Assembly (NCBI GenBank): GCA_041486775.1
Contig: JBGPMB010000002.1
Span: 1-53,296 of the forward strand
DNA length: 53,296 bases
Origin: Candidatus Eiseniibacteriota bacterium
GTDB taxonomy: Bacteria; Eisenbacteria; RBG-16-71-46; SZUA-252
Reading direction: 5' to 3'
Position numbers and translations under genes: made by a program. The notes below the pieces were generated by a model. The model saw nothing but the letters and a program-made list of their open reading frames with translations. It did no database searches and was not told where the DNA came from. This document shows, piece after piece, positions 970 to 41,265 of this stretch (position 1 is its first letter; each line of letters starts with the position of its first letter).

Positions 970-2094
970 CTAGACGGGGGTCTCTTTGTTCTCGAACGGC
1001 TTCCAGGACTCGTCCGACGTGGCGTGGATTCCCTTCACGCGAAGCTCGAACTCGGTCGGATTGGAGCAGTACCGGAGCGCCGTCTCGAGGCTGATCTTCC
1101 CCTCCGTGTGGAACTTCATGATGGCCTGGTCGAAGGTCTGCATGCCGTATTGCGACACGCCTTCCTGGATCGCGCCCTTGATCAGGGACGTCTTCGACGG
1201 ATCGAGAAGGTACTCGCGGATGGTGGCGGTTGCCACCATGACTTCCGCCGCCGGAATTCGCCCGGATTGGTCGGAGCGCGGCATGAGCCGGAGCGCGATC
1301 ACCGCCTGGAGCGTGGCGGAGAGCATGTACCGCGTCTCCTCGTGCTGATGGGGCGGGAAGAAGGACAGGATCCGGTTGATCGTCTGCGCCGCGTCGGTCG
1401 TGTGGAGCGTGGTAAGCACGAGGTGGCCCGTGTCCGCCGCCATGAGCGCGGTCTGCATCGTCTCGGCGTCCCGGATCTCACCGATCAGGATCACGTCGGG
1501 ATCCTGACGCAGGATGTGCTTCAAGCCCTCGGCGAAGGAGGCCGTGTCGAGGCCCACCTCGCGCTGGGAGATGGTGCTCTTCTTGTCGCGGTAGAGGAAC
1601 TCCACCGGGTCCTCGATCGTGATCACGTTCTTGGCGATCGTTCGGTTCACCGAGTCGATCATGGCGGCCAGCGTGGTGGACTTGCCGCTCCCCACCGTTC
1701 CGCACACCAGCACGAGCCCGCGCGGGCGCGTCGCGATCTCCTCGATGGTCGACGGGAGATTCAGCTCCTCGAACGACGGAATGGTGGCCGGCACCTGCCG
1801 GAACACCATGGCGATGGTCCCGCGCTGCTGGTAGAAGTTGCTCCGGAAGCGCGAAAGGCCCGTCACGCCGAAGGCGAAGTCCACCTCCTTCGTCTCCTCG
1901 AAGGTCTTCTTCTGCTTCGGCGTCAGGATCTGATCCACGATCGCTTCGAGGTCGGCCTGTCCCGGCGCCGGCTCGTCGAGCGTCACGAGGGCCCCGTTCA
2001 CTCGCGCGGTGGGCTTGGTGCCCACCTTGACGTGAAGGTCGGACGCCTTGAGCTCCACCATCTTTTGCAGCACTCGCTTGATATTCATCCCCAC
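970..2094 (-). CDS. pilT: type IV pilus retraction ATPase, PilT/PilU family
   Basis: 374-aa ORF with Walker [11 protein letters not shown], Walker [13 protein letters not shown] and the [11 protein letters not shown] His box. The [21 protein letters not shown]-terminus is typical of PilT. Confidence 0.85.
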
Positions 2095-7278: not shown

Positions 7279-7995
7279 CTAGAAGACGATGTATACGCCG
7301 TCGTCCTGCGTCGCGTTGACGGGGACGATGGAGGGATCCTGTGCCTGACCGCCGCGCTCGAGATAGAACTGGTCGTTGATGATCTCATCGGTGTACCGCT
7401 GGCTGGGGACCCGCCCGTCCACGATCGAATCACGCCCGGCCGTACCCGTTCGCGCCGCGCTGGCCACCACGGAGCTCACGCCCCCGGAAGCAGCCTCGGG
7501 CGATGGGACCGAAGGCGTGTTCCCCTGGGCCAGGGTGGGAGACTGCGATGAGATGGTACCGGACGATGGGCCGGGCGTGACACCCGCCGCGGGCGCCTGG
7601 CTGCGCGAGGCGACCGTCAGCGCGGGAGCCGGGCGCAGGAGACCCTGCCCCACCGGGGAGAGCAAGAACGCGACCACGACGGCGGCGGCGCCCGCGCCCG
7701 CCATGGGGAGCGGCCGGAGACGAAGGGGAGAAAGCAACTCGAGGATCATCTCGCGGACGCCGGGACGCAGCCCTTCGCCGGAGCGGATCTTCGCGTAGAT
7801 ATCCTCGTCGAAATGAGCGCTGGGCTCGACGACGGGCATCCGTTCCAAGATCGACATCGTGGCCCTCACCTCGCGCAGCGCGAGCGAGCAGCGACGACAT
7901 CCCATGAGATGCGCCTCGAGGTTGCGGCGCTCCTCCTGGCTGATCTCGTCCTCGACGTACGACGAGAACAATGATTCGACCGACCGGCAGTTCAT
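7279..7995 (-). CDS. anti-sigma factor, zf-HC2 type, single-pass membrane protein
   Basis: C-terminal 238 aa of track ORF 7279..8472, starting MNCRSVESLF. It has the HLMGCRRC (H-x3-C-x2-C) motif and a TM segment AGAAAVVVAFLL. The ATG at 7995 overlaps the sigma factor stop (ATGA). Confidence 0.75.
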   Translation of the reverse strand: MNCRSVESLFSSYVEDEISQEERRNLEAHLMGCRRCSLALREVRATMSILERMPVVEPSAHFDEDIYAKIRSGEGLRPGVREMILELLSPLRLRPLPMAGAGAAAVVVAFLLSPVGQGLLRPAPALTVASRSQAPAAGVTPGPSSGTISSQSPTLAQGNTPSVPSPEAASGGVSSVVASAARTGTAGRDSIVDGRVPSQRYTDEIINDQFYLERGGQAQDPSIVPVNATQDDGVYIVF

Positions 7996-8615
7996 GCGTC
8001 CTCCAGATTCAAATGCGGTTTGAGTCGCTCCTTCAGCATCAGCCGGGCACGATTGATCCGTGATCGCACGGTGCCGCCCGGGATTCGGAGGATCTCTCCC
8101 ACTTCCTCGTAGCTCAACCCCTCGATATCGCGGAGCACCACGGCCTCGCGGTACCGAGCGGGTATCTTTTCGAGCGCCTCCGCCACGCGCCGGCGGATCT
8201 CGCTCGCATTCAGGTCTTCGTCGGGCAGGGGTTTCAGATCGGGGAACGCAAGCCCCTGCCCTCCGGAATCCTCTTCCATCGCATCCAGGCTGAACGTGCC
8301 CTTGTGCCGCACGCGGCTCCGGATCTCGTTCTTGGTCAGGTTGACCGCGATCGTGAAAATCCACGTCGAGAACTTGCCGCTCTTCCGATAACGCTCGCGG
8401 TTCCGGTAGACGCGGAGGAAAACTTCCTGGCTGATCTCTTCGGCCCGGTCCCGGTCGTTGATGAACCGGCACACGAGATTCATGATCCGCGAGCGATACC
8501 GCTGGACGAGCGCGCGAAAAGCCGTCTCGGAGCCCAGGGCACAGCGCTCCATGACGTCTTCATCGGTCAGCTCGGCTAACTCGAGCTTTTTCACTAGGCG
8601 TAGCTCGCTGGGCAT
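7992..8615 (-). CDS. rpoE: ECF (sigma-70 family, group 4) RNA polymerase sigma factor
   Basis: 207 aa with region 2 (FRALVQRYRSRIMNLVCRF, EISQEVFLRVY, STWIFTIAVN) and region 4 (REAVVLRDIEGLSYEEVGEILRIPGGTVRSRINRAR). Confidence 0.9.
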   Translation of the reverse strand: MPSELRLVKKLELAELTDEDVMERCALGSETAFRALVQRYRSRIMNLVCRFINDRDRAEEISQEVFLRVYRNRERYRKSGKFSTWIFTIAVNLTKNEIRSRVRHKGTFSLDAMEEDSGGQGLAFPDLKPLPDEDLNASEIRRRVAEALEKIPARYREAVVLRDIEGLSYEEVGEILRIPGGTVRSRINRARLMLKERLKPHLNLEDA

Positions 8616-8622
8616 TCACTCT

Positions 8623-8645
8623 CCGTGGTAGTCGATACACCACGG
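8623..8645 (-). promoter_or_regulatory. 7-bp perfect inverted repeat (CCGTGGT-N9-ACCACGG) in the rpoE 5' leader, abutting the Shine-Dalgarno
   Basis: Read directly. On the mRNA strand the 3' arm ends at ACCACGGAGAG, where GGAGAG is the likely SD 3 nt before ATG 8615. Confidence 0.3.
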
Positions 8646-8676
8646 GGTGTTGCCGGTTCCGGTACGGACCGAATTC

Positions 8677-10350
8677 TTAGGGCTTGGAGAAGAGGGTGAG
8701 CCCCGCCGGGCTCGTGGGGGGACGTTTCTCGCGTGCCCGGGACTCGGCGGTCCGAGCCTCGCTATCCAGCCTCAGGGCCCGGCATACGCGCCCGAGCATG
8801 AACTCCGCGTCGGACCCGGCGTCCGGGCAGCCAACCGCGCGCTTCAACAAATCCCTAGCTAACTCCAATTGTCCCATATTGTAGCGTATGGTGCCGAGGA
8901 GCGCCAGGGCCCTGCCGTTCCTGGGATCAAGCTCCACGGCCCGGTCCAGTCTCTGGAGCGCCCGGTCCATGGCTCCCTGACTCAAGTCTGATGCCGCCAG
9001 GAAATAAAGGCACTCGGAATTCTCCCGGCCGAGGCCGTTCAGCTTCTGAAAGGCCCATTCCGCCACCAGGCTGTCGCCGATCGAAACGGCGGCCCGGCCC
9101 AATTCCGCATAGAGGTTGGCGCTCTCCGACCCCCGGGACGCTCCCTCCCGCATGAGCGAGACCGCCTCCTCGGGATGATGGAGGAGCATGTAACAGAGGG
9201 CGCCCGCCAGGATGCGACGCGGGCTGGCGAGGAGCCCCTCCCGGATCTGCTCCAGAACCTGCACCCCCCGGTGCCGGTCACCCACCTTGATCTCGAGGTA
9301 GGCCACCACCAGGGACTCGTCCTGGGTGAGGGTTCGGAGCCCGCCCAGCTTCCGGAAGCAGCGGAGGGCCGTCTTTTCATCCGAGAGGGCGACCAGGGCC
9401 CGGCCCCGAACCGGGAGCGCGGCCGGATTGTTCTCGATGGGCTTCACCGCGGTGAGCGCCGCACGGTACTCCCCGTCCCGCACCAACGTGCGGCCGGCGT
9501 TCACGCGCGCGTCGACCGGATCGAATCCGCGCCGCGCCATGGTCAGAAGAAAGGCCTCCGCGGCCTTTCTCTCCCCCTCGCGAAAGAGGTACGAGGCGTA
9601 TGCCGCCACCTGCTCGGGAAGCGCGCCCTGGGCCTCGGCGCGCCGCCGGAGCAGTTTCTCCTCGAGCGCCTTGTCCCCCGTGCGACGCGCCAGCTCGACA
9701 CCCAGTCCCAAGGTCCGGGGGTCGTCCGGGTTGAGCGTCAGCGCCAGCTCGAGCGCCTCCGAGGCTTCGCTCAGGCGACCGTCCTCGAGGGCCATGGCCA
9801 GCACACCGTTCGCCACCCACCCGAAGTCCGGAAGAAGCTCTCCCGTGCGCTTCAGGTCGGCCAGCGACGCCTCGTAATTCTTGTCCAGCTCGTGGGCGAG
9901 CGCGCGGAGCGCGTAGAGCTCGGGTCGCGCGCCCAGGAGACGGAGCGGCGGCGTGAGCGCCTTCGCCGCGATCGAGGCTTCCCCCGCGCGCAGGCGCATC
10001 CGTCCGACGAGCATGGCCGCGTCCTGGTTCAGGCTGTCCATGAGGAGCGAGCGGTCGCCCCACGCGAGCGCCCGCGTGTCCTCTCCCGAGGACTCGAGCA
10101 GCTGCGCCAGGCGCCACGCGGCGAAACTGGACCGCGGATCCGCCGCCGTGAGCTGCTCGGCCCAATGCTGTGCCTCCTCCATGTTGCCGCTTTCCTGGGC
10201 CACGGTGGAGCGCGCGAGCAATTCGAGATTCAGGGGGATGACGCGGGGAGCCGGCGCCTGGGCCGAGGAAGATCCGGCCAGGGCGGCGAGAAGTACCAAA
10301 GCCAGAAGGGTCGAGCCCATTCGTGAGCCGATGTCTCTAGTCAGGGTCAC
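8677..10350 (-). CDS. secreted TPR-repeat protein
   Basis: 557 aa with signal peptide (STLLALVLLAALAGSSSAQA) and many TPR-like helical pairs. The start is uncertain: GTG at 10350 or ATG at 10320. Confidence 0.65.
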   Translation of the reverse strand: MTLTRDIGSRMGSTLLALVLLAALAGSSSAQAPAPRVIPLNLELLARSTVAQESGNMEEAQHWAEQLTAADPRSSFAAWRLAQLLESSGEDTRALAWGDRSLLMDSLNQDAAMLVGRMRLRAGEASIAAKALTPPLRLLGARPELYALRALAHELDKNYEASLADLKRTGELLPDFGWVANGVLAMALEDGRLSEASEALELALTLNPDDPRTLGLGVELARRTGDKALEEKLLRRRAEAQGALPEQVAAYASYLFREGERKAAEAFLLTMARRGFDPVDARVNAGRTLVRDGEYRAALTAVKPIENNPAALPVRGRALVALSDEKTALRCFRKLGGLRTLTQDESLVVAYLEIKVGDRHRGVQVLEQIREGLLASPRRILAGALCYMLLHHPEEAVSLMREGASRGSESANLYAELGRAAVSIGDSLVAEWAFQKLNGLGRENSECLYFLAASDLSQGAMDRALQRLDRAVELDPRNGRALALLGTIRYNMGQLELARDLLKRAVGCPDAGSDAEFMLGRVCRALRLDSEARTAESRAREKRPPTSPAGLTLFSKP

Positions 10351-19067: not shown

Positions 19068-20200
19068 GCCGCCTCCGCCGCGCGGGCGATCACGGCGCGC
19101 ACCGCTTCATCCATGTCGCTCAGCGCCATGATGCCCTTCTTTCCGAGGAGCTCACGCGCTTCCTTCTCGTTCGTCCCGGTGAGCCGGATCACGATCGGGA
19201 TCCTCACGTTCAGGCGGTCCAGCGCGGTCAGGAGCCCCCGCGCCACGTCGTCGCAGCGCGTGATTCCGCCGAAGATGTTGAAGAGGACCGCGCGCACGCG
19301 CGAGTCGCCGGTGAGAATGTTCATGGCGGATTCGACCTTCTCCGGATTGGAGGAGCCGCCGATGTCCAGGAAGTTGGCCGGCCTTCCGCCGTGGTACTGG
19401 ATCAGGTCCATGGTGGCCATCGCGAGACCCGCCCCGTTCACCACGCAGCCGATCGACCCGTCCAGCTTCACGTAGGAGAGCCCGCGCTCGCGGGCCTCCA
19501 CCTCGCCGGGATCCTCGGCTGTGAGGTCGCGCCACGAGGCGAGGTCGGGATGGCGGTCCAGGGCGTTGTCGTCGAGCACGATCTTGGCGTCGAGCGCCAG
19601 GACCTCTCCCGCCTTCGTCACGACCAGCGGGTTGATCTCGGCGAGCGAGGCGTCCTGATCGCGGTAGACCCGCGCGAGCCGGATCAGGATGGGAACGATC
19701 TGCTTCTGGATCGCGGGGCTCTTGTCCAGAAACCGGGCCGCCGCGCGCGCCCGGTAGGCCGGGAGACCGCGCAGGTCGATCGGAATCCTGAGAATCTTCT
19801 CGGGCGAGGTGCGCGCGACCTCCTCGATGTCGATCCCCCCCGCGGGGCTGACCATGAGAAGCGGCGTCTCGTTCTTCCGATCGAGCACCATACCCGCGTA
19901 ATACTCGCGATCGATGTCCGCCGACGGGGTGATCAGCACCCGGTGGACCTTGAGGCCCCGGATGTCCATCCCGATGATGCGGCCGGCCTCGCGCTTCAAC
20001 TCCTCCGGCGTGCGGACCACCTTGACGCCTCCGGCCTTGCCGCGGCCGCCGATCAGCACCTGCGCCTTCACGACCACCGGGTAGGAGAACCGCGCCGCGA
20101 CGGAGACCGCCTCCTCCACGCTCGACGCCACGTCGCCCGGAGGCACCGGAATGCCCGCCGCGCGGAAAAGCTCCTTCGATTGATACTCGTGGAGGTTCAA
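19064..20200 (-). CDS. sucC: succinyl-CoA synthetase beta subunit
   Basis: The TTG at 20200 gives (M)[11 protein letters not shown], the canonical SucC N-terminus, and overlaps the upstream stop (TTGA). The track's extra 157 N-terminal codons are Arg-rich shadow. Confidence 0.9.
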
Positions 20201-21609
20201 CGCTTCCCTCGCGTCACCCGCGCGGACTTCCGCGCCGCCTTCTTCAAGCCGCCGCGCGCGGGCTCGGTGGCCGCGAGCCGCTCCAGGCACTCGCGGATCA
20301 AGTCCTCGAGCTTCGGCCGGCCGATCTCCTCCAGCTCGTAGCCCACGCGGACCGCGTGGCGCTTGATGCTCACGAGTTTTCGCAGGTCGATCGGCGTCGC
20401 GACCACGACGACATCGCACGGACAGGCGTTGATGGTCTTCTCCATGTCCCGGATCTGCTCCTTGGAATAACCCATGGCGGGGAGGAGCGCGCCGATGTTC
20501 GGGTACTGCTTGAAGACGTCCTTCATGCCCCCGACGAGCCAGGGCCTGGGATCCACGATCTCGCTCGCGCCGTGGCGGCGCGCCGCGACCACGCCCGCGC
20601 CGTATTTCATCTCGCCGTGGGTGAGCGTGGGTCCGTCCTCGATCACCAGCGCGCGCTGGCCCCGGATCCACTCCGGATGGTCCACCGTGATGGGGGACGC
20701 CGCGTCCACGATGACCGCGCGGGGATTGAGCTCCTGGACCGACCGGCGGACCGCCTCGATGTTCTCGTAGTCGGTGGTGGTCTCCTTGTTGATCACCACC
20801 ACGTCCGCCAGCCTCACGTTCGTTTCGCCCGGATGGTACGTGCGCTCGTGTCCGGGCCGGTGCGGATCCGCCACGACGATCTGGAGATCCGCCTTGAAGA
20901 AGGAAAGGTCGTTGTTCCCCCCGTCCCAGACGATGACGTCCGCTTCACGCTCGGCCTGGCGCAGGATCTCGGCATAGTCGACCCCCGCGTAGACAACGGT
21001 GCCACGATCCAGATGCGGCTCGTACTCCTCCCGCTCCTCGATCGTGCACTTGTGGCGGTCCAGGTCGGCGTAGGTCCCGAAGCGCTGCACCGCTTGGCGG
21101 GAGAGGTCGCCGTAGGGCATCGGGTGGCGGACCGCGACGACCCGCTTCCCCATCGCCTTCAGCACCTCGCACACCTTGCGCGTGGTCTGACTCTTGCCTG
21201 AACCGGTGCGCACGGCGTTCACGGCGACGACCGGGGTGCGGCTTCGGAGCTGTGTCGTCTTCGGGCCCATGATCGTGAAGTCGCATCCCAGGCTCGCGAT
21301 CCAGGACGCCTTGTGCATGACGTACTCGTGGGAGACGTCGCTGTAGGCAAAGACCACTTCGTCCACGTCGTGGTCCCGGATCAAGCCCGGAAGGTCCTGC
21401 TCGGAAACGATCGGGATGCCCTTGGGGTAGCGTCCGCCGGCCAGCGAGGGCGGATAGCGGCGGTCATCGATGCCGGGGATCTGGGCGGAGGCCGTGAACG
21501 CCACCACCCGATACTCGGGGCGCCGCTTGAAGAACATGTTGAAGTTGTGAAAGTCCCGTCCGCCGGCGCCCATGATCACTACTCGTCTCGGATTCTTCAC
21601 TCGAGGCAC
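20197..21609 (-). CDS. COG2403-type predicted P-loop NTPase (cyclic 2,3-diphosphoglycerate synthetase-like family)
   Basis: 470 aa with a Rossmann-like N-terminus (VVIMGAGGRDFHNFN) and P-loop RTGSGKSQTT. Overall resemblance to the family annotated as cDPG synthetase or predicted GTPase is from memory, not searched. Confidence 0.55.
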   Translation of the reverse strand: MPRVKNPRRVVIMGAGGRDFHNFNMFFKRRPEYRVVAFTASAQIPGIDDRRYPPSLAGGRYPKGIPIVSEQDLPGLIRDHDVDEVVFAYSDVSHEYVMHKASWIASLGCDFTIMGPKTTQLRSRTPVVAVNAVRTGSGKSQTTRKVCEVLKAMGKRVVAVRHPMPYGDLSRQAVQRFGTYADLDRHKCTIEEREEYEPHLDRGTVVYAGVDYAEILRQAEREADVIVWDGGNNDLSFFKADLQIVVADPHRPGHERTYHPGETNVRLADVVVINKETTTDYENIEAVRRSVQELNPRAVIVDAASPITVDHPEWIRGQRALVIEDGPTLTHGEMKYGAGVVAARRHGASEIVDPRPWLVGGMKDVFKQYPNIGALLPAMGYSKEQIRDMEKTINACPCDVVVVATPIDLRKLVSIKRHAVRVGYELEEIGRPKLEDLIRECLERLAATEPARGGLKKAARKSARVTRGKR

Positions 21610-33110: not shown

Positions 33111-34278
33111 GTCGTTTCTCCACGGGTAAGTCGATGAGCACGCTCGTTCCCTGCCCGACCACGCTTTCGATCGAGATGGAGCCTCCGTGCTCCCGGATGA
33201 TGGTCTGGCAAATACTGAGACCCAGCCCGGTCCCTTGCGTGCGCGTGGTGTAGAACGGATCGAAGACACGCGCGAGCACGGCCGCGGGAATTCCGGGACC
33301 GTTGTCTTGAACGCGGACTTCCACGAGATCGAGGATCGGAGCCTGGCGTCTTGTGTCCAGCCGGTCTCCGGAGCGCCGGCCGAGCCGCGAGCGCTCGGCG
33401 AGACGCTTGCGGACGGGACCGACGACGATCGAGAGCTCTCCTCCGCGATCCAGCGCCTGGAGCGCGTTCATCAGCACATTGAGCATGACTTGCAGGATTT
33501 GGTCGAGATCGACGTAGACGTCGGGGACCGTGTCGGCGCGCTTTACCTGTAAGAGCACGTTCTGGCGCACGGCCACCTCGTGCACGAGCGTGAGCGCTTT
33601 CTCGAGGGCCGGCAGGATGGACTGACGCTGGAGCTTCGGGGTCGCGGGCCGGGCGAACTGGAGGAGCCCGGTCACGATGCGATCCAGGCGCGACACCTCT
33701 TCCAGGATGAGATCGATGAATTGAGCCCGCGGGTCTCCCACGTCGAGCCGGCGTTTCATCACCTGGGCGGAGGTGCCGATCCCGGCCAGGGGGTTTCGGA
33801 TCTCGTGGGCCACGCCCGCGGCGAGAGCGCCCAGCGAGGCGAGCCGGTCCCGCCGGCGCCACTGGTCCTCGAGCGCCTTCTGCTCGCGCAGATCCTGGAA
33901 CAGGGCGAGGGTGCCCTGGAGCGCGCCGTCCAGCCCTTCGAGCGGAAGGAGCCGCAGGCCCACGGGAAGCACGTCGCCCGATCGCGTGACCACCTCCACC
34001 TCGCGCGATTCCTCCGGGGCCGCGCAGGCGCCGGGGGATACGTGCGACTCGCCGCGGGGCGCCCGCAGGATTCGCGCGACCGCTTCCCCCTCGACCTCCT
34101 CCGCCGCGTAGCCCAGGAGCTTCGAGGCGGCCGGGTTCATGGCCTGGATGGTTCCGTCCCGGCCGATCGCCATCACCCCGAACGGCGCGTGCTTGAGGAA
34201 GCTCCACGCCGCGTCGAGGCCCTGCGGCCCGGGTGGCGCCGGCTCTCCGCCCGCGCGGAGCACGCTCCGGGATCTCAT
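33082..34278 (-). CDS. cytoplasmic PAS-domain sensor histidine kinase
   Basis: ATG 34278 overlaps the upstream stop (ATGA). It has a PAS-like segment (FGVMAIGRDGTIQAMNPAASKLLGY), H-box GVAHEIRNPL, N-box NVLMNALQAL, and G boxes DNGPGIP and GTGLGLSI. No TM segment is seen. Confidence 0.85.
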   Translation of the reverse strand: MRSRSVLRAGGEPAPPGPQGLDAAWSFLKHAPFGVMAIGRDGTIQAMNPAASKLLGYAAEEVEGEAVARILRAPRGESHVSPGACAAPEESREVEVVTRSGDVLPVGLRLLPLEGLDGALQGTLALFQDLREQKALEDQWRRRDRLASLGALAAGVAHEIRNPLAGIGTSAQVMKRRLDVGDPRAQFIDLILEEVSRLDRIVTGLLQFARPATPKLQRQSILPALEKALTLVHEVAVRQNVLLQVKRADTVPDVYVDLDQILQVMLNVLMNALQALDRGGELSIVVGPVRKRLAERSRLGRRSGDRLDTRRQAPILDLVEVRVQDNGPGIPAAVLARVFDPFYTTRTQGTGLGLSICQTIIREHGGSISIESVVGQGTSVLIDLPVEKRHGDRRGNPR

Positions 34279-35171
34279 GCGCGGGCCGCCTCGACGCGAC
34301 GCGCGGCTTCCGCGGCAAGCTCGCGGAGCGAGGGATCGCCGCCCCGCGCGACCGCGCGGAGTCTCGGCAGCGCTTCGGGGTCGCCGAGCGCGCCGAGCGC
34401 TTCGATGGCCGAAGCCCGGACCGGCAGCGCCGCGGTGGAGGCCGCCTCGAGCAAGGCCCCCGCCGCGTCCGGGTCCCGGTGCCGCGCGAGAGCGCGGGCC
34501 GCCGCGCGTCCGACGCCGGCGCTGGGATCGAAGAGAAGGCGCCGGAGCCACGCGGATCGCTCGACTCCCGTGGCCCGCTCCAGCCCCGAGGCGAACGTCT
34601 GTCTCACGCCGGCGTCCGGATCGCGGAGAAGAGGCTCGAGGGGTTCGAGACCCAGCGCCGCCGAGGCGGTGAGCCGGGCGCGCAGGGCGTGGGCGCGAAC
34701 GCGCGGGTCCTCGTCCGCGAGAAGCGCGGCCGCGCACGGGAGCCAGAATTCGCCCTCGTTCAGGCTCATCGCGGCCGCCAGCCTCACCTCCACGTCGGGA
34801 TCGCCGACGGCGGCGGGAAACAAGGCGCCGGCCCGGCGCGGGTCGCACGCCCTGAGGGCAGCGGCGCGCGAGGCGCCGTCTGGAGCGCGATCGAAGAGCG
34901 CCGCCGCGTCGATCTCATGCTCGCGGATGGCGCGGAGCGCGACGAGAGCGGCCTGCCTCACGTCGGGATAGGTGTCGGACAGAAGGGACTCCAGAGCCAC
35001 GCCCGCGTCGGCGCAGCGTAGGAGTCCCAGAGCCTCGGCGGCTTGCGCGCGCACATGCCCCACGGGATCGGCGGTGAGGGAGCGCGCCGCCTCCGCGGCC
35101 CCCGGGCCGCCGGAGCGCCCCGCCAGCGCGACGGAGCGCTCGCGCACCAGCGCAACCTCGAGCGTGGTCAA
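34275..35171 (-). CDS. HEAT-repeat protein (downstream part; same frame as 35172..36083 across one TAG)
   Basis: 298 aa with repeated DPxxxVRxxAAxALG units (DPVGHVRAQAAEALG, YPDVRQAALVAL, DPDVEVRLAAAMSL, DPRVRAHALRA, DPDAGVRQTF). The first codon after the TAG is TTG. Confidence 0.6.
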   Translation of the reverse strand: MTTLEVALVRERSVALAGRSGGPGAAEAARSLTADPVGHVRAQAAEALGLLRCADAGVALESLLSDTYPDVRQAALVALRAIREHEIDAAALFDRAPDGASRAAALRACDPRRAGALFPAAVGDPDVEVRLAAAMSLNEGEFWLPCAAALLADEDPRVRAHALRARLTASAALGLEPLEPLLRDPDAGVRQTFASGLERATGVERSAWLRRLLFDPSAGVGRAAARALARHRDPDAAGALLEAASTAALPVRASAIEALGALGDPEALPRLRAVARGGDPSLRELAAEAARRVEAARA

Positions 35172-36083
35172 CTAGAGGCACGCGGCGAGCGAAGATTCCT
35201 CCCGCACGGCCGCCACCCGGTCGAGCGCGGCCGCGGTCGTGGCGGGGACGTGGGTCGCCGCCTCCGCGATGGCCTGGAGTGCCGGGGCCTCGGCGGATGC
35301 CGCGACCAGCCCGAAGGCCTCCCGCGCCCGGGAGCGGACCGTGCGGTCCGCAGCGTCGAGCAACGGGAGCAGAAGCGTGGGCGCCTCCGCCGGCCTGAGC
35401 CAGGCGAGGAGCGAGATCAGCGCCAGATTCGCGTTCCGGTCTCGGGATTGGGCCAGGCTTCCGATCTTCCGCGCGGGGAAACCCGGAGGCAGGTCGGAGG
35501 CGGCGACCGCGTGCGGGGCGCGCTCGTGGAGGCGCACCACCGCAGCCAGCGCTTCGGCCTCCACGGCCGGGTCGCCGCACTCGAGGAATCTCAGAAGGTC
35601 GGACCGGCAGCGCCGGGTGCCGCTCGCTCCCAGGGCGCGGAGCACCGCGATCCGGACGGCGGCGTCCTCTTCACCCAGTCTGTCGATCAGGAGCTCCTCG
35701 GCGCCGGGTTCCTCCAGCCTCGCGAGCGCGAGCGCCAGGGGTCCTGCCAGCTCCGGGCGCGAGGCGAGGCATTCGGACAGGGTGTCGCAGGCGTGTGGCG
35801 TTCGAAGGGCGGCGAGCGCCTCGGCGGCGGAGACGACGACGTCGGGGCAGGCATCCTCGAGAATGGACGGGAGCAATTCGGGTGGGACCGGGCCCTTGAG
35901 CCCGGGGATCACGCTGATCGCCAGCGAGCGGGTCTCGGGGTCCGGATCGAAAAGACGATCCTCGAGGGCACGGCTCAACTCGGCGCCGGAGTCCTCCGTC
36001 TGGAGTCCCTGCGCCTCGCGGGCCTTAGCGCTCGAATCCGCTCGCTGAAGCAATTGCGCCGCATTCCAGCCGGCTTCCGGCAT
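35172..36083 (-). CDS. HEAT-repeat protein (upstream part; terminated by in-frame TAG at 35174..35172)
   Basis: 303 aa with units such as DPDPETRSLAISVI, CPDVVVSAAEALA, EDAAVRIAVLRALG, DPAVEAEALAAV and DRTVRSRAREAFG. It has an ATG start. Confidence 0.6.
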   Translation of the reverse strand: MPEAGWNAAQLLQRADSSAKAREAQGLQTEDSGAELSRALEDRLFDPDPETRSLAISVIPGLKGPVPPELLPSILEDACPDVVVSAAEALAALRTPHACDTLSECLASRPELAGPLALALARLEEPGAEELLIDRLGEEDAAVRIAVLRALGASGTRRCRSDLLRFLECGDPAVEAEALAAVVRLHERAPHAVAASDLPPGFPARKIGSLAQSRDRNANLALISLLAWLRPAEAPTLLLPLLDAADRTVRSRAREAFGLVAASAEAPALQAIAEAATHVPATTAAALDRVAAVREESSLAACL

Positions 36084-36166
36084 CTTGTCCGCGCTCGACT
36101 CCGCATCCAGGGGTGGAGGGAACTCAGGGCGCCGGTCATGTTCTTACCAGTGACCCTTCGATGCGG

Positions 36167-36349
36167 TCAAGCGGATTCAGGGCGCTCAGGCTCCGGGGGG
36201 GCACTCGCGCGCGCGAGACGGCGCAAGATGAGGTGGCTCAGGACCCGGCGAACCTCGGGGCGGTCGTAGTAGCGGTCTCGGATGCGGCGCCGGACTTCAG
36301 CGATCCGCGAGGACGCGTCGACCTGGGGCTCAATTGAGGTTAGCGGCAC
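36167..36349 (-). CDS. 60-aa protein resembling the C-terminal sigma-28-binding region of FlgM (tentative)
   Basis: GTG start; overlaps the upstream ORF by 20 nt. SRIAEVRRRIRDRYYDRPEVRRVLSHLI follows the FlgM pattern (B. subtilis [26 protein letters not shown]). GC3-rich codons. This is a by-eye comparison only. Confidence 0.35.
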   Translation of the reverse strand: MPLTSIEPQVDASSRIAEVRRRIRDRYYDRPEVRRVLSHLILRRLARASAPPEPERPESA

Positions 36350-36665
36350 GGCTGCGGTCCCTCCGGATCGATGCGATGGCTTCCATCCAGCTATCCTTCA
36401 AGTCGGCGAGCATCTCGGCCGCTTCGTCGAAGCGCCCCTCCGCCGACTCCGTGATGCAAAAATCGAGAATCCCGATCACGCGTCCCGCCACATCCTCGCT
36501 CGCGAGCTCCAGACACTGCATGGACTCGCGGAGCGCCTCCTCGACCACCGGGCGGCTCCCGCTCCGGCACCCCCGGAGCGCGCAGTCGAGGAGGGCCAAG
36601 ACCTCGTCGCAGCGGCGCAGCCAGCGGTCCAGCTCAGCGGGGTTCTCCTCGTACGTCTGACTCAC
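36330..36665 (-). CDS. 111-aa all-helical protein, FliS-like by eye (tentative), translationally coupled to csrA
   Basis: The GTG start overlaps the csrA stop (GTGA). The C-terminal [16 protein letters not shown] resembles B. subtilis FliS DFRDAWKQAIQSERKD. The preceding [25 protein letters not shown] resembles the FliS helix MGAMYDYMYRRLVQANIKND. Confidence 0.4.
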
Positions 36666-36886
36666 TTCGAGCCGCTTCCCTGGCCGTCGGATACCTCCGG
36701 CTTGACCGCCTGGGCCCTTCGGTTCTCTTCCTGGATGCGCTCGTAGATCTCTTCGCGGTGAACCTTCACACTCGGCGGCGCGTCGATCCCAAGCTTCACG
36801 TGATTACCCTTCACTTCCACGATCGTGATCTTCACGTCGTCTCCGATCCGGATATTTTCGCCAAGCTTTCGGGTCAGGAGGAGCAT
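36662..36886 (-). CDS. csrA: carbon storage regulator CsrA (RNA-binding translational regulator)
   Basis: The C-terminal 74 aa of track ORF 36662..37993 read [55 protein letters not shown]. This is near-identical in pattern to E. coli CsrA. A GAGGG Shine-Dalgarno lies 4 nt upstream of ATG 36886. Confidence 0.9.
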
Positions 36887-37017
36887 CGTGCCCTCGACGA
36901 TCTCCGGCATCCTGCCGGGGGGAGCGTTTTCAACTTGAGCCGGCTCCAGGGCCTCGCCTCGTGCGCGTCCCTTCGCGGCTCGTCCTGATTTTTCTTCGGC
37001 AGGAACCCGCTCCTTCT

Positions 37018-37036
37018 GAACGGGGAATGCCCGTTC
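37018..37036. promoter_or_regulatory. perfect palindrome GAACGGG-N5-CCCGTTC in the csrA / tolB-like divergent intergenic region
   Basis: Read directly. It lies ~135 nt upstream of the csrA ATG and ~60-95 nt upstream of the divergent lipoprotein gene start. Confidence 0.3.
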
Positions 37037-37129
37037 CCAAGCGGTGCGGCGCGGCTTCCGCGGCGTGTCGAGGCCGGATCGAGCCAGGGCGCGTTGCCGC
37101 GTGCCGCGCGCGCTGTTAGGATCGGCTCT

Positions 37130-38083
37130 GTGAGGAATCTGGCACGCCACACCGCCGCGCGAGCGGCCCGATCCGCGCTTCTGGCGGGGCTTCTCTCGGG
37201 GTGCGGCCACCACGTTCAAGGGCTGGTCTCGGTCTCGGGGGTTCAATGGGACCGGATCACTCCCGCTTCGGTGATCGAGCCGGATCGGCCTGACTGGCGC
37301 GGCGATTCGATCACCTTCGAGACGCGTGTCGCGGGATCGGCCCGCGTCGCGGTGGCGCGGGAGGACGGCAGCGGAGCCGCGATCGAGCCCGAGATCGGAA
37401 GCGCCAACGCGCGCGCGCCGCGCTGGGTGCGAAGCGGGCTCCTCCTCTATTCCTCGGACCTCCTGGGGTCCGAAGACCTCTGGTACCGCGAGGTCCAATC
37501 CGGCGTGACGCGCCGGCTCGAGGGCTTCGCCGGGATGGAGTGGACCCCCGCCCCGCGGCCCGCCGGGCCCGGAATCGCCTACGTGGAGGGAGCGAATCCC
37601 GATTCGGGCCGGCTCGTGCTCCTGCCCGATAGCGCTGCGGCGCCGCTCACCCCGACCTACCTCACCCCGGCATCGCTCGGAGCGGGAGAGCCGTCCTTTA
37701 GCCCGGCGGGAGACCAGGTTTGCTTCAGCGCCTCGGGTCCGAACGGCACGAGGCAGATCTGGAGGCTCTCCCTCACCGATACGCTTGCGATTCAGCTCAC
37801 CGTCGCGCCCTCTGTGAGCCCGCCCTCGGGTCCCGTCCTCGATCGGAGCCCCCGGTGGAGCCCGGACGGGACGCGGATCCTGTTCGCGTCGAATCGCGGG
37901 GGGATCTGGGGGATCTGGACGGTGAGCCCGCTCGGCGAGGCCCAGGGGCTCGACGTGATCGCGCTGGATGTGAGCGGCGCGGAGGTCCGCCACCCGGTGT
38001 GGTCGCCCGACGGGACCCGGGTGTTGCTCTCCTCGAATCGAAGCGGCGACCGGGCGCTCTGGAGGCTCTCGAACGTGCCCTGA
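37130..38083 (+). CDS. TolB-like beta-propeller (PD40 repeat) lipoprotein
   Basis: Lipobox [10 protein letters not shown] and repeated PD40-type units ([52 protein letters not shown]). The start is GTG 37130 (AGGA 9 nt upstream) or TTG 37094. Confidence 0.7.
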
Positions 38084-39969: not shown

Positions 39970-41265
39970 CTACGGAATGGGCTCCAGGTCGCGCGTGAAC
40001 GAATCGTCGAAGCCGTCGGCCTTCTTGCCACCGCCGGATTTCTTCGGCGCGTCGTCCGCATCGACCCGGATCGCGATCTCCACCGTCATGGTGATGCGCC
40101 CGGAGCGCGGAAGCACGCCCAGCTCGATGGGAATCGAGACGCGCCGCGTGTCCCCGGAGCCGGAACCGGAGCCCATCTTGGGGCCCGCGGTCATGGAGGG
40201 CACGCCCGGCTCGAATTCGAAGTCGCCGATCGATTCCTCGTCGGCCGCGCTCGGCGCCGGTACCGGCGCCCGGGTGGCGCGGGCCGGCTCCGCCGCGCGC
40301 GCGGGCGTTGCGACGGGCGGGTGCGGGATCATGTCCTCTTCGTTCAACACCAACTCCTCTTCGGCATTGAGGGGCTGGGGCATCTCGGCGACCGGCGCGT
40401 CGTCGATCAGCGCCTCGTCGCCGAGGAGCGGCGTGGCCTCGAAGGCAGCGGCCGCCGGGCTCCCGCTTCCCCGGACCGGCTCTTCGGCCGGGGCCTCGGT
40501 CTCCATCGGCTCGGCCTCCATGGGCTCCGGCTGCCCCTTGCCGCGCTTCAGGTATTTCAGGAGCTTTCCGCCCGTCGGCACCTTTTCCTGCTTCTTGGAC
40601 TCGACGGCCGAGGCTTCGGCTTTCGCGGCGGTCGCCTTCGCCCGGGCGAGGCCCTGCACGGCGCCCTTGTCCTTCTCGAGGACGTCCTTCGTTATCTTCG
40701 CGAGGAGGAGCTTGGAAACGCCGCGGAGCGTCTCGAACACGCCCACGCCGTTGGCCGCCTGCGCCTCGAAGAAGGGAACCTTCAGCCGGTTCAGCTCGCG
40801 GTTCAGGTCTTCGACCGATACCGCGTTCGGCAGGTCGCGCTTGTTGTATTGGAGAACGAGCGGGATGGTCTTGATGTCGATCCCGTACGCCTTGAGGTTG
40901 AGCTCGAGGTTCGCGTAGCTCTCGCGGTTCTCCGCCATCTTGTCCGCCGCGGAGTCCGCGACGAAGACCACGGCATCGACGCCCTTCAGCACCAGCTTCC
41001 GCGTGGCGTTGTAGTACACCTGGCCCGGCACCGTATAGAGAAGAAGCCGGGTCTTCATGCCCTGAAGGTCGCCCAGGTCCAGAGGAAGGAGATCGAAGAA
41101 GAGCGTCCGGTCGGTCTGCGTCTTCATCGAGACCATGCGGCCCCGATTCGTCTCGGGAACGCTGTCGTAGATCTTCTCGAGGTTGGTCGTCTTGCCGCTG
41201 AGACCCGGACCGTAATACACGATCTTCGCGTTGATCTCGCGTCCCGAATAGCTCACCACCACCAT
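39970..41265 (-). CDS. MglA-family Ras-like GTPase with ~235-aa acidic/Pro-rich C-terminal extension
   Basis: The first ~195 aa closely track Myxococcus MglA: REINAKIVYYGPGLSGKTTN, DRTLFFDLLP, LYTVPGQVYYNATRKLVLKGVDAVVFVADS and QYNKRDLP. The rest is low-complexity, ending in a short beta-like segment RRVSIPIELGVLPRSGRITMTVEIAIRVD. GAGGAG Shine-Dalgarno. Confidence 0.85.
   Translation of the reverse strand: MVVVSYSGREINAKIVYYGPGLSGKTTNLEKIYDSVPETNRGRMVSMKTQTDRTLFFDLLPLDLGDLQGMKTRLLLYTVPGQVYYNATRKLVLKGVDAVVFVADSAADKMAENRESYANLELNLKAYGIDIKTIPLVLQYNKRDLPNAVSVEDLNRELNRLKVPFFEAQAANGVGVFETLRGVSKLLLAKITKDVLEKDKGAVQGLARAKATAAKAEASAVESKKQEKVPTGGKLLKYLKRGKGQPEPMEAEPMETEAPAEEPVRGSGSPAAAAFEATPLLGDEALIDDAPVAEMPQPLNAEEELVLNEEDMIPHPPVATPARAAEPARATRAPVPAPSAADEESIGDFEFEPGVPSMTAGPKMGSGSGSGDTRRVSIPIELGVLPRSGRITMTVEIAIRVDADDAPKKSGGGKKADGFDDSFTRDLEPIP

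Follow-up and report, generated by a model that had tools for sequence, protein, structure and literature searches.

A csrA operon of Candidatus Eisenbacteria with genes for a FliS-like protein and a truncated FlgM, without fliW

CsrA is among the most widespread post-transcriptional regulators, and to our knowledge its antagonists are of only three kinds: sponge small RNAs, FliW, and CesT. FliW, CsrA, and flagellin are reported to form a partner-switch in bacteria that encode FliW, CesT is said to antagonize CsrA in enteropathogenic Escherichia coli, and E. coli CsrA reportedly regulates its own translation. Canonical FliS binds both FlgM and the C-terminal helix of flagellin, the interaction with FlgM having reportedly been observed in Salmonella and in Yersinia, and a sigma-28 promoter commonly drives transcription of flgM. 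The partner-switch of Bacillus subtilis, in which the flagellin is Hag, is credited to Mukherjee 2011, cited in PMC13443453. Here, we describe a locus of Candidatus Eisenbacteria in a stretch of 53,296 nucleotides (nt) of contig JBGPMB010000002.1, referred to throughout as the window, in which csrA is followed by genes for a FliS-like protein of 111 amino acids (aa) and a FlgM-like protein of 60 aa, termed mini-FlgM. All features of this trio lie on the minus strand, and positions are those of the window. The genes, and the translation signal of the third, are as follows:

36662-36886, minus strand: csrA, 74 aa, with Pfam and NCBIfam matches
36330-36665, minus strand: gene for a FliS-like four-helix bundle, 111 aa, isoelectric point (pI) 4.5, net charge -9, GTG start
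36167-36349, minus strand: mini-FlgM gene, 60 aa, pI 11
36359-36364, minus strand: GGAGGG, Shine-Dalgarno sequence of the 60-aa open reading frame (ORF), within the codons for IRRDR in the FliS-like gene (read from the sequence)

The trio is a variant on the known CsrA-FliW, FliS-FlgM, and FlgM-sigma-28 systems. Our best explanation, which we hold at about even probability, is that the three genes constitute one operon, the collapsed remnant of a late flagellar cluster, with the regulatory circuit that is proposed below. The ancestral cluster would have had the order flgKL-fliW-csrA-flagellin-fliS-fliD-x-flgM, as in flagellated lineages; the genes retained, in their original order, would be the three for cytoplasmic regulators or chaperones, and fliW and the secreted structural genes would have been lost from the locus.

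The gene orders of flagellar loci in other lineages are consistent with this notion. In locus L099, the Pfam-confirmed order is FlgK-FlgL-FliW-CsrA-flagellin-FliS-FliD-x-FlgM-PilZ, and the Eisenbacteria order is the L099 order minus fliW, flagellin, and fliD. In all seven of the flagellar (FliS) loci of other lineages in which csrA is found, fliW lies immediately upstream of it, and the original prediction that fliW is missing beside the Eisenbacteria csrA proves correct at the locus. In L063, a metagenome contig with 71% guanine plus cytosine (GC), the CsrA is the nearest to that of Eisenbacteria (E = 4e-30). Here, fliW, csrA, and fliS are contiguous (L063 positions 7686-8830) with no flagellin between them, which could represent an intermediate gene arrangement.

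All Eisenbacteria loci of sufficient length have the order csrA, 111-aa homologue, 60-aa homologue. In a genome scan, the family was found in Candidatus Eisenbacteria metagenome-assembled genomes (MAGs), with three contigs carrying other phylum labels. These contigs, labelled Candidatus Binatia (L005), Dormiibacterota (L009), and Latescibacterota (L015), have the same synteny and 75-93% identity, and are probably mis-binned or reflect differences in taxonomy labels. On the 5' side, the order is MglA-like GTPase, TPR protein, trpA, and a divergent PD40 protein, followed by the trio; on the 3' side it is an optional HEAT-repeat gene, a PAS histidine kinase, a sigma-54 response regulator, an optional CheR, tgt, yajC, and def. 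The setting of the trio is thus fixed and non-flagellar. No flagellin or fliD was found up to 10 kb on either side of the trio in any Eisenbacteria locus, and no homologue of FliW, flagellin, FliD, FlgK, or FlgL was found in 323 kb of Eisenbacteria DNA, which is largely redundant and comes from this region only.

The first gene is unmistakably csrA, as had been claimed from the sequence at the outset. Its product matches Pfam PF02599 over positions 1-53 of the 53 in the domain (E = 8e-27; 93.4 bits versus a cut-off of 27) and the NCBIfam equivalogs NF002469 and TIGR00202 (100.3 versus 73 and 96.0 versus 70.1 bits). It is of the same type as the CsrA of the FliW-CsrA-Hag system, being 74 aa long with the QEEN(R/N)RA helix and N55 conserved, and the neighborhood fliW-csrA-flagellin-fliS, taken as ancestral, is present in related loci. 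The Eisenbacteria locus differs from that system in that it has neither fliW nor flagellin and places csrA in an operon with the FliS-like and FlgM-like genes. A further difference resides in the C-terminal extension of CsrA. The protein core (residues 1-59) hardly varies within the phylum, and the tail that follows is variable and of low complexity, consisting of 13-50 unconserved residues rich in Gly, Pro, Ser, and acidic side chains. FliW-paired CsrAs have in common a C-terminal amphipathic motif, x-[LI]-[KR]-[ED]-[VIA]-A-x3-[FLM]-[KR] (for example PQLLREIAGAMRAPKK), which a comparison of the tails did not find in those of Eisenbacteria. A machine-learning model of a repression assay on the B. 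subtilis hag leader predicts few Eisenbacteria CsrAs to be functional in that assay (PMC13443453), which would fit a CsrA whose role or cofactor has changed.

Homologues of the 111-aa protein form 40 clusters with 49-93% identity, nearly all of them about 111 aa long and all unnamed. Direct scans of both small proteins and 23 family members with Pfam and NCBIfam gave no family match, and Pfam FliS (PF02561) does not match the window protein at E ≤ 1. A profile of the 111-aa family, searched against 1.84e9 representative proteins, retrieved 116 matches at E ≤ 1e-3; of 75 such matches that lie beyond the core family (E 9e-13 to 4.3e-5), a Pfam scan assigns 74 to FliS PF02561. Comparison of profiles by hhalign gave 99.5% against the retrieved FliS set, a value inflated by the selection of that set with the query profile, and 94.9% against an independently found FliS of a Melioribacteraceae contig, which is located between flagellin and FliD. 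The nearest canonical relatives of the family also sit in flagellar loci.

The predicted structure points in the same direction. The AlphaFold2 model of the 111-aa protein (predicted local distance difference test score 88) is a four-helix bundle with helices at residues 9-35, 38-53, 57-75, and 79-110, and it has the FliS fold, taken as an antiparallel four-helix bundle of about 110-135 aa. Foldseek ranks the B. subtilis FliS structures 6gow_E and 5maw_E first among its PDB matches (E = 2.4e-3, template modelling score 0.43); 3k1i, 1orj, 3iqc, and 6ch3 are also listed, with FliS of Helicobacter pylori, Aquifex, and Salmonella lower in the ranking. The statistics of this search are weak (E-values of 2e-3 and above), and generic helical bundles appear between the FliS structures. 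A sequence-profile search of the PDB with the family reached FliS at E = 0.37 only. The likeness of the C-terminus to B. subtilis FliS, noticed in the original prediction, recurs in the HMMER alignment of the same segment to PDB 5maw_E/1vh6_A. With profile search, hhalign, and AlphaFold2/Foldseek all in support of the proposed FliS-like identity, the 111-aa protein is, as judged from sequence and model, a divergent member of the FliS family. Its net charge of -9 compares with about -3 in canonical FliS.

Three cysteines of the FliS-like protein, C28, C33, and C70, are invariant across the family. C33 and C70 are common to a compact FliS subfamily (in AIxxC and YCL motifs), and C28 is found in Eisenbacteria only; these positions could conceivably form a metal or redox site. 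The search of representative proteins also returned P0045, from outside the window, a protein of 205 aa with two tandem FliS domains, apparent as two separate stretches that match the profile, and a Pfam FliS match.

The 60-aa protein belongs to a family of at least 214 predicted clusters, whose only name, if one is given, is "hypothetical protein"; most of the NCBI records with a name come from Eisenbacteria MAGs. Pfam FlgM (PF04316) has no match at E ≤ 10 among 13 + 10 family members, and a sequence-profile search of the PDB with the family gave no match. We further searched 8130 ORFs of at least 35 aa, drawn from 80 FliS-containing metagenome loci and three flagellar loci, with a hidden Markov model (HMM) of the family. 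The top seven ORFs are FlgM-like (E = 6e-8, 1.5e-4, 2.9e-3, 7.5e-3, 0.044, 0.22, and 0.77), and all lie on the same strand as fliS, 1-3 kb downstream of it. Six of the seven were scanned with Pfam, and FlgM (PF04316) is the best match in every case, once above the cut-off. The aligned region is always C-terminal, the sigma-28-binding helix-turn-helix of FlgM. Comparison by hhalign gave 96.7% against a FlgM set that was partly chosen by the query, a value inflated to that extent, and 11.5% against a single independent FlgM, a result that the unbiased HMM search above supersedes.

The AlphaFold2 model of the 60-aa protein has a disordered N-terminus, a helix at residues 11-27, a YDRP turn, a second helix at residues 31-49, and a disordered tail. 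Of the disordered first half of FlgM, which carries the export signal and the conserved V-x-L-S-x-x-A segment, no counterpart was found; 10-25 variable residues precede the conserved helix instead. The FlgM-like identity originally suggested is therefore sustained by the HMM ranking, the Pfam best matches, and hhalign in a narrower form: the protein appears from these comparisons to be a truncated FlgM that consists of the C-terminal helix-turn-helix only. We regard the FliS-like and FlgM-like homology assignments as secure with high confidence. Mini-FlgM resembles the FlgM of the FlgM/sigma-28 (FliA) checkpoint in its helix-turn-helix pattern, R-[IV]-x3-R-x2-I-x2-[GRH]-[YF]-Y, which aligns with the FlgM C-terminus, and in the sigma-28-like promoter motif before its operon, reminiscent of class III flgM transcription. 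It differs in that it lacks the N-terminal half and falls below the Pfam thresholds. The family is also strongly basic, with a pI of 11-11.9 and 12 Arg in a 33-residue core, compared with a pI of about 5.6 in canonical FlgM.

Both small ORFs are genuine conserved genes in every Eisenbacteria locus examined. Their GC contents at codon positions 1, 2, and 3 (0.67/0.47/0.86 for the 111-aa ORF and 0.75/0.56/0.77 for the 60-aa ORF, in a window of 68-70% GC) are typical of genes in the window. Conservation and a coding signature in relatives had been named as the check on their reality, and the trio is conserved, with a median pairwise ratio of nonsynonymous to synonymous substitution rates (dN/dS) of 0.32 (111-aa gene) and 0.50 (60-aa gene), compared with 0.155 for csrA.

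The window sequence confirms that the TGA stop of csrA overlaps the GTG start of the 111-aa ORF (GTGA). The start of the 111-aa ORF is further confirmed by L015, which has ATGA at the same position. The reported 20-nt overlap between the two small ORFs is likewise present: the 60-aa ORF opens at a GTG 20 nt before the stop of the 111-aa ORF and 9 nt after its GGAGGG Shine-Dalgarno sequence, and this start is kept in all 21 related loci. The nested coupling that had been proposed for the three genes holds only in part. The overlap of the FliS-like and FlgM-like genes is universal in the family, but that of csrA and the FliS-like gene is confined to one clade; in the other Eisenbacteria clade (about 50% identity), a csrA with a long tail is followed by a gap of about 30-120 nt before the FliS-like gene. 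Because the csrA overlap is clade-specific, the tight coupling is that of the FliS-like to the FlgM-like gene and not that of CsrA to the FliS-like gene.

The presence of the 20-nt overlap in every genome fits a complex of the FliS-like and FlgM-like proteins, by analogy with enterobacterial FliS-FlgM, where a FliS-family chaperone and a FlgM-family anti-sigma factor are likewise found together. In that system, however, the two genes are in separate operons and FlgM is full-length and secreted, whereas the Eisenbacteria FlgM is cut down to an Arg-rich C-terminal helix-turn-helix (pI 11) and the FliS-like protein is far more acidic.

The region upstream of csrA contains three conserved features:

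36996-37020, minus strand: sigma-28-like promoter motif TTCAGA-N14-GCCGA, 110-134 nt 5' of the csrA ATG, conserved
36904-36918, minus strand: leader hairpin CCGGC-AGGAU-GCCGG, 18-32 nt 5' of the csrA ATG, with GGA in the loop
36891-36895, minus strand: csrA Shine-Dalgarno sequence GAGGG, CGAGGGCACGATGCTC invariant in all loci

Twenty Eisenbacteria loci include the region upstream of csrA; each of them, like the window, has a single copy of the motif TTCAGA-N14-GCCGA, always upstream of this gene. The TTCAGA and TGCCGA blocks are invariant and the rest of the leader is variable; the -10-like element, GCCGAAGA, extends to about 36993. The 6+14 geometry agrees with that of the TAAAGC/TTCAAG/CTCAAG-N14-GCCGAT motifs before flagellin genes of related flagellar loci, and the geometry and the -10 half match sigma-28 promoters, from which we infer that the motif is a sigma-28-type promoter. 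A sigma-54 promoter was considered for the conserved upstream block and rejected, as its GG-N10-GC pattern is not satisfied. A scan of positions 35900-37200 for sigma-70 promoters and terminators found none.

The leader hairpin has the consensus CCGGC-AGGAY-GCYGG, and its stem pairs in 19 of 19 sequences. It is part of the minimum-free-energy fold, in a leader that is not unusually stable (z = -0.14), and an Rfam scan of the operon and leader returned no family. The sequence of the hairpin matches the core of the CsrA-binding consensus, CAGGAUG. As in the autoregulation of E. coli csrA, a GGA in a hairpin loop lies just upstream of the Shine-Dalgarno sequence, with CAGGAUG corresponding to the high-affinity consensus core; the Eisenbacteria leader differs in having one strictly conserved site, versus four. 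Of the GGAs, only the one in the hairpin loop is conserved in position, as is the Shine-Dalgarno sequence, whose context CGAGGGCACGATG is invariant. The hairpin loop (AGGATG) also contains an in-frame ATG (36908-36910, minus strand), 24 nt 5' of the csrA start, from which gene callers annotate an 82-aa CsrA. In many relatives the loop is AGGAC, without that ATG, and the conserved start of csrA reads MLLLTRK; the common 82-aa call thus appears to begin at a spurious ATG within the leader hairpin.

A circuit can be proposed from these elements. A sigma-28 (FliA)-type factor would transcribe the operon from TTCAGA-N14-GCCGA, and mini-FlgM, which is composed of the sigma-28-binding helix-turn-helix only, would feed back as an anti-sigma factor, a role proposed because this helix-turn-helix has been retained. 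The acidic FliS-like chaperone would bind the very basic mini-FlgM and thereby set the level of free anti-sigma activity; this step is suggested by the universal coupling of the two genes, their complementary charges, and the FliS-FlgM interaction of enterobacteria. CsrA, for its part, would bind the AGGA-loop hairpin near its own Shine-Dalgarno sequence and so regulate its own synthesis, and it would bind other mRNAs as well, acting without FliW. The trio may thus act as a self-contained regulatory switch. Taken as a whole, the circuit is a tentative proposal whose probability we place at, or a little short of, even.

Several observations weigh against this reading of the operon. Neither small protein passes any Pfam threshold, and the higher of the hhalign values (99.5% for FliS and 96.7% for FlgM) are inflated in that the comparison sets were selected by the query profiles. 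The -35 element, TTCAGA, departs from TAAA/TCAAG, and the promoter motif could be the site of another factor. Covariation in the hairpin is minimal, with one variable pair (GC 12 / GU 6 / AU 1) that is not significant by shuffling, and the enrichment of GGA motifs claimed for the csrA leader is not significant: six in 130 nt compare with 3.3 ± 1.8 in pieces of the window of the same size, 11.6% of which reach six. In its Arg-rich core, mini-FlgM departs from canonical FlgM, and this core could serve a different partner, such as RNA. Finally, if the phylum is flagellated, both ORFs may be its ordinary fliS and flgM, the search for flagellar genes having covered only about 323 kb of local DNA.

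This last point leads to an explanation that we consider possible but somewhat unlikely, namely that Eisenbacteria are flagellated and that the two ORFs are ordinary, fast-evolving fliS and flgM genes beside csrA, with fliW and flagellin elsewhere or with FliW lost as in Gammaproteobacteria. The canonical FliS proteins nearest to the 111-aa family do sit in flagellar loci, and compact FliS and short FlgM proteins that score weakly or not at all with Pfam are also found in flagellated lineages: the FliS of P0049 adjoins FlhG-FliA and a 60-aa FlgM, and that of L099 reaches only 1e-7. A sigma-28-like promoter would, moreover, fit class III flagellar regulation, and flagellation is reported for sister phyla (PMC11323493; Zixibacteria in PMC10652976); literature that names both Eisenbacteria and flagella contained no statement on whether Eisenbacteria are flagellated. 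Ordinary flagellar genes are harder to reconcile with the setting, however, as at least 24 loci all lie among trpA, tgt, def, and a generic AtoS/AtoC-like system, flagellar structural genes are absent for up to 10 kb in both directions, and the flagellin and fliD that separate these genes in relatives are missing. The loss from mini-FlgM of the N-terminal half, including the V-x-L-S motif region, the unusual charge of both proteins, and the CsrA tail without the motif of FliW-paired CsrAs also argue against it. An explanation that the 60-aa ORF is not a gene, and that its conservation stems from the overlapping C-terminus of the FliS-like gene or from an RNA element, appears highly improbable. 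The ORF is small, has a GTG start and no Pfam match, shows the highest dN/dS of the three genes, and is skipped by some gene callers (L004, L028, L110), but the overlap spans only 20 nt and the conserved core lies downstream of it. All 21 loci keep the frame open; of the other frames of the same DNA, +1 has stops in 20 of the 21 and +2 has a dN/dS of 1.65. A spurious ORF would also leave unexplained the predicted protein clusters, at least 214 in number, and the specific retrieval of FlgM by their profile.

A third explanation, raised in the original prediction, is that the FliS-like protein, mini-FlgM, or their complex would bind and antagonize CsrA and so replace FliW, by analogy with the FliW of Bacillus or the CesT of enteropathogenic E. 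coli. The analogy with CesT is one of concept only, a type-III-secretion chaperone possibly doubling as a CsrA antagonist; the CesT fold is unrelated, and CesT is not encoded with csrA. A replacement of this kind would agree with the position of csrA, always first in the trio and coupled through GTGA or ATGA in one clade, and with a locus that has no fliW where seven of seven loci in other lineages have it adjacent. The FliS-like protein has a fold of the secretion-chaperone type, CesT-like in function, and its acidity would suit the basic RNA-binding face of CsrA; the few Eisenbacteria CsrAs predicted functional in the hag assay (PMC13443453) suggest, too, that these proteins may differ from FliW-paired CsrAs. 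The overlap of csrA with the FliS-like gene is not kept in the second clade, however, in contrast to the universal overlap of the FliS-like gene with mini-FlgM, and the tail of CsrA, the usual partner-binding site, is unconserved next to an invariant core. Adjacency of csrA and fliS, furthermore, already exists in a fliW-bearing lineage; because L063 has it together with fliW, the adjacency is inherited and not evidence of partnership. We consider a replacement of FliW quite unlikely. Doubtful as well is a scenario in which the flagellum itself has been lost and CsrA, a FliS-derived chaperone, and an Arg-rich FlgM-derived peptide have been kept as a free-standing circuit, the FliS-like/mini-FlgM pair replacing FliW and titrating CsrA and/or a FliA-type sigma factor. 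If true, it would mean that a flagellar partner-switch has been rewired to other control, for example of the type IV pilus or MglA-type motility genes in the window.

The reading of the trio as the remnant of a late flagellar cluster illustrates how a late flagellar checkpoint can shrink to cytoplasmic regulators. A phylum-wide operon of csrA with a FliS-like gene and a minimal flgM, without fliW and with a CsrA devoid of the tail motif of its FliW-paired counterparts, is in addition a concrete and cheap place to seek a fourth solution to CsrA antagonism; its genes are tiny, and a heterologous reporter is available in the B. subtilis csrA fliW double mutant (PMC13443453). About 250 database clusters that are now "hypothetical" can be named FliS-like and FlgM-like.

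Among the neighboring genes, the two-component system downstream of the trio was considered as a flagellar regulator of the FleS/FleR type and rejected, its best matches being AtoS/AtoC and NtrC, with FlgR and FlbD far below their cut-offs. In the relatives L004, L110, L028, and L029, one ORF of about 602 aa makes up the HEAT-repeat gene 3' of the trio. An in-frame TAG (35172-35174, minus strand) divides its counterpart in the window into ORFs at 35172-36083 and 34275-35171, at a codon that is AAG (Lys) in L110; either a nonsense mutation or pseudogene, or a sequencing error, would account for it.

Farther from the trio, a small-GTPase-like protein of 431 aa (39970-41265, minus strand) has an MglA/Arf-like N-terminus, a long C-terminal extension of low complexity, and no NCBIfam match, and all loci have its gene on the upstream side of csrA. 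The window also encodes a PilT/PilU type IV pilus ATPase at 970-2094 (minus strand; TIGR01420 above cut-off), and together the two genes hint at pilus- or gliding-type rather than flagellar motility. An ORF of 470 aa at 20197-21609 (minus strand) has a strong coding signature, with a GC content of 0.89 at codon position 3, and no Pfam or NCBIfam family at E ≤ 1e-5. A zf-HC2 anti-sigma-factor-like protein, unrelated to the trio, is found at 7279-8472 (minus strand) / 7992-8615, presumably beside an ECF sigma factor with which it would make up another sigma/anti-sigma pair.

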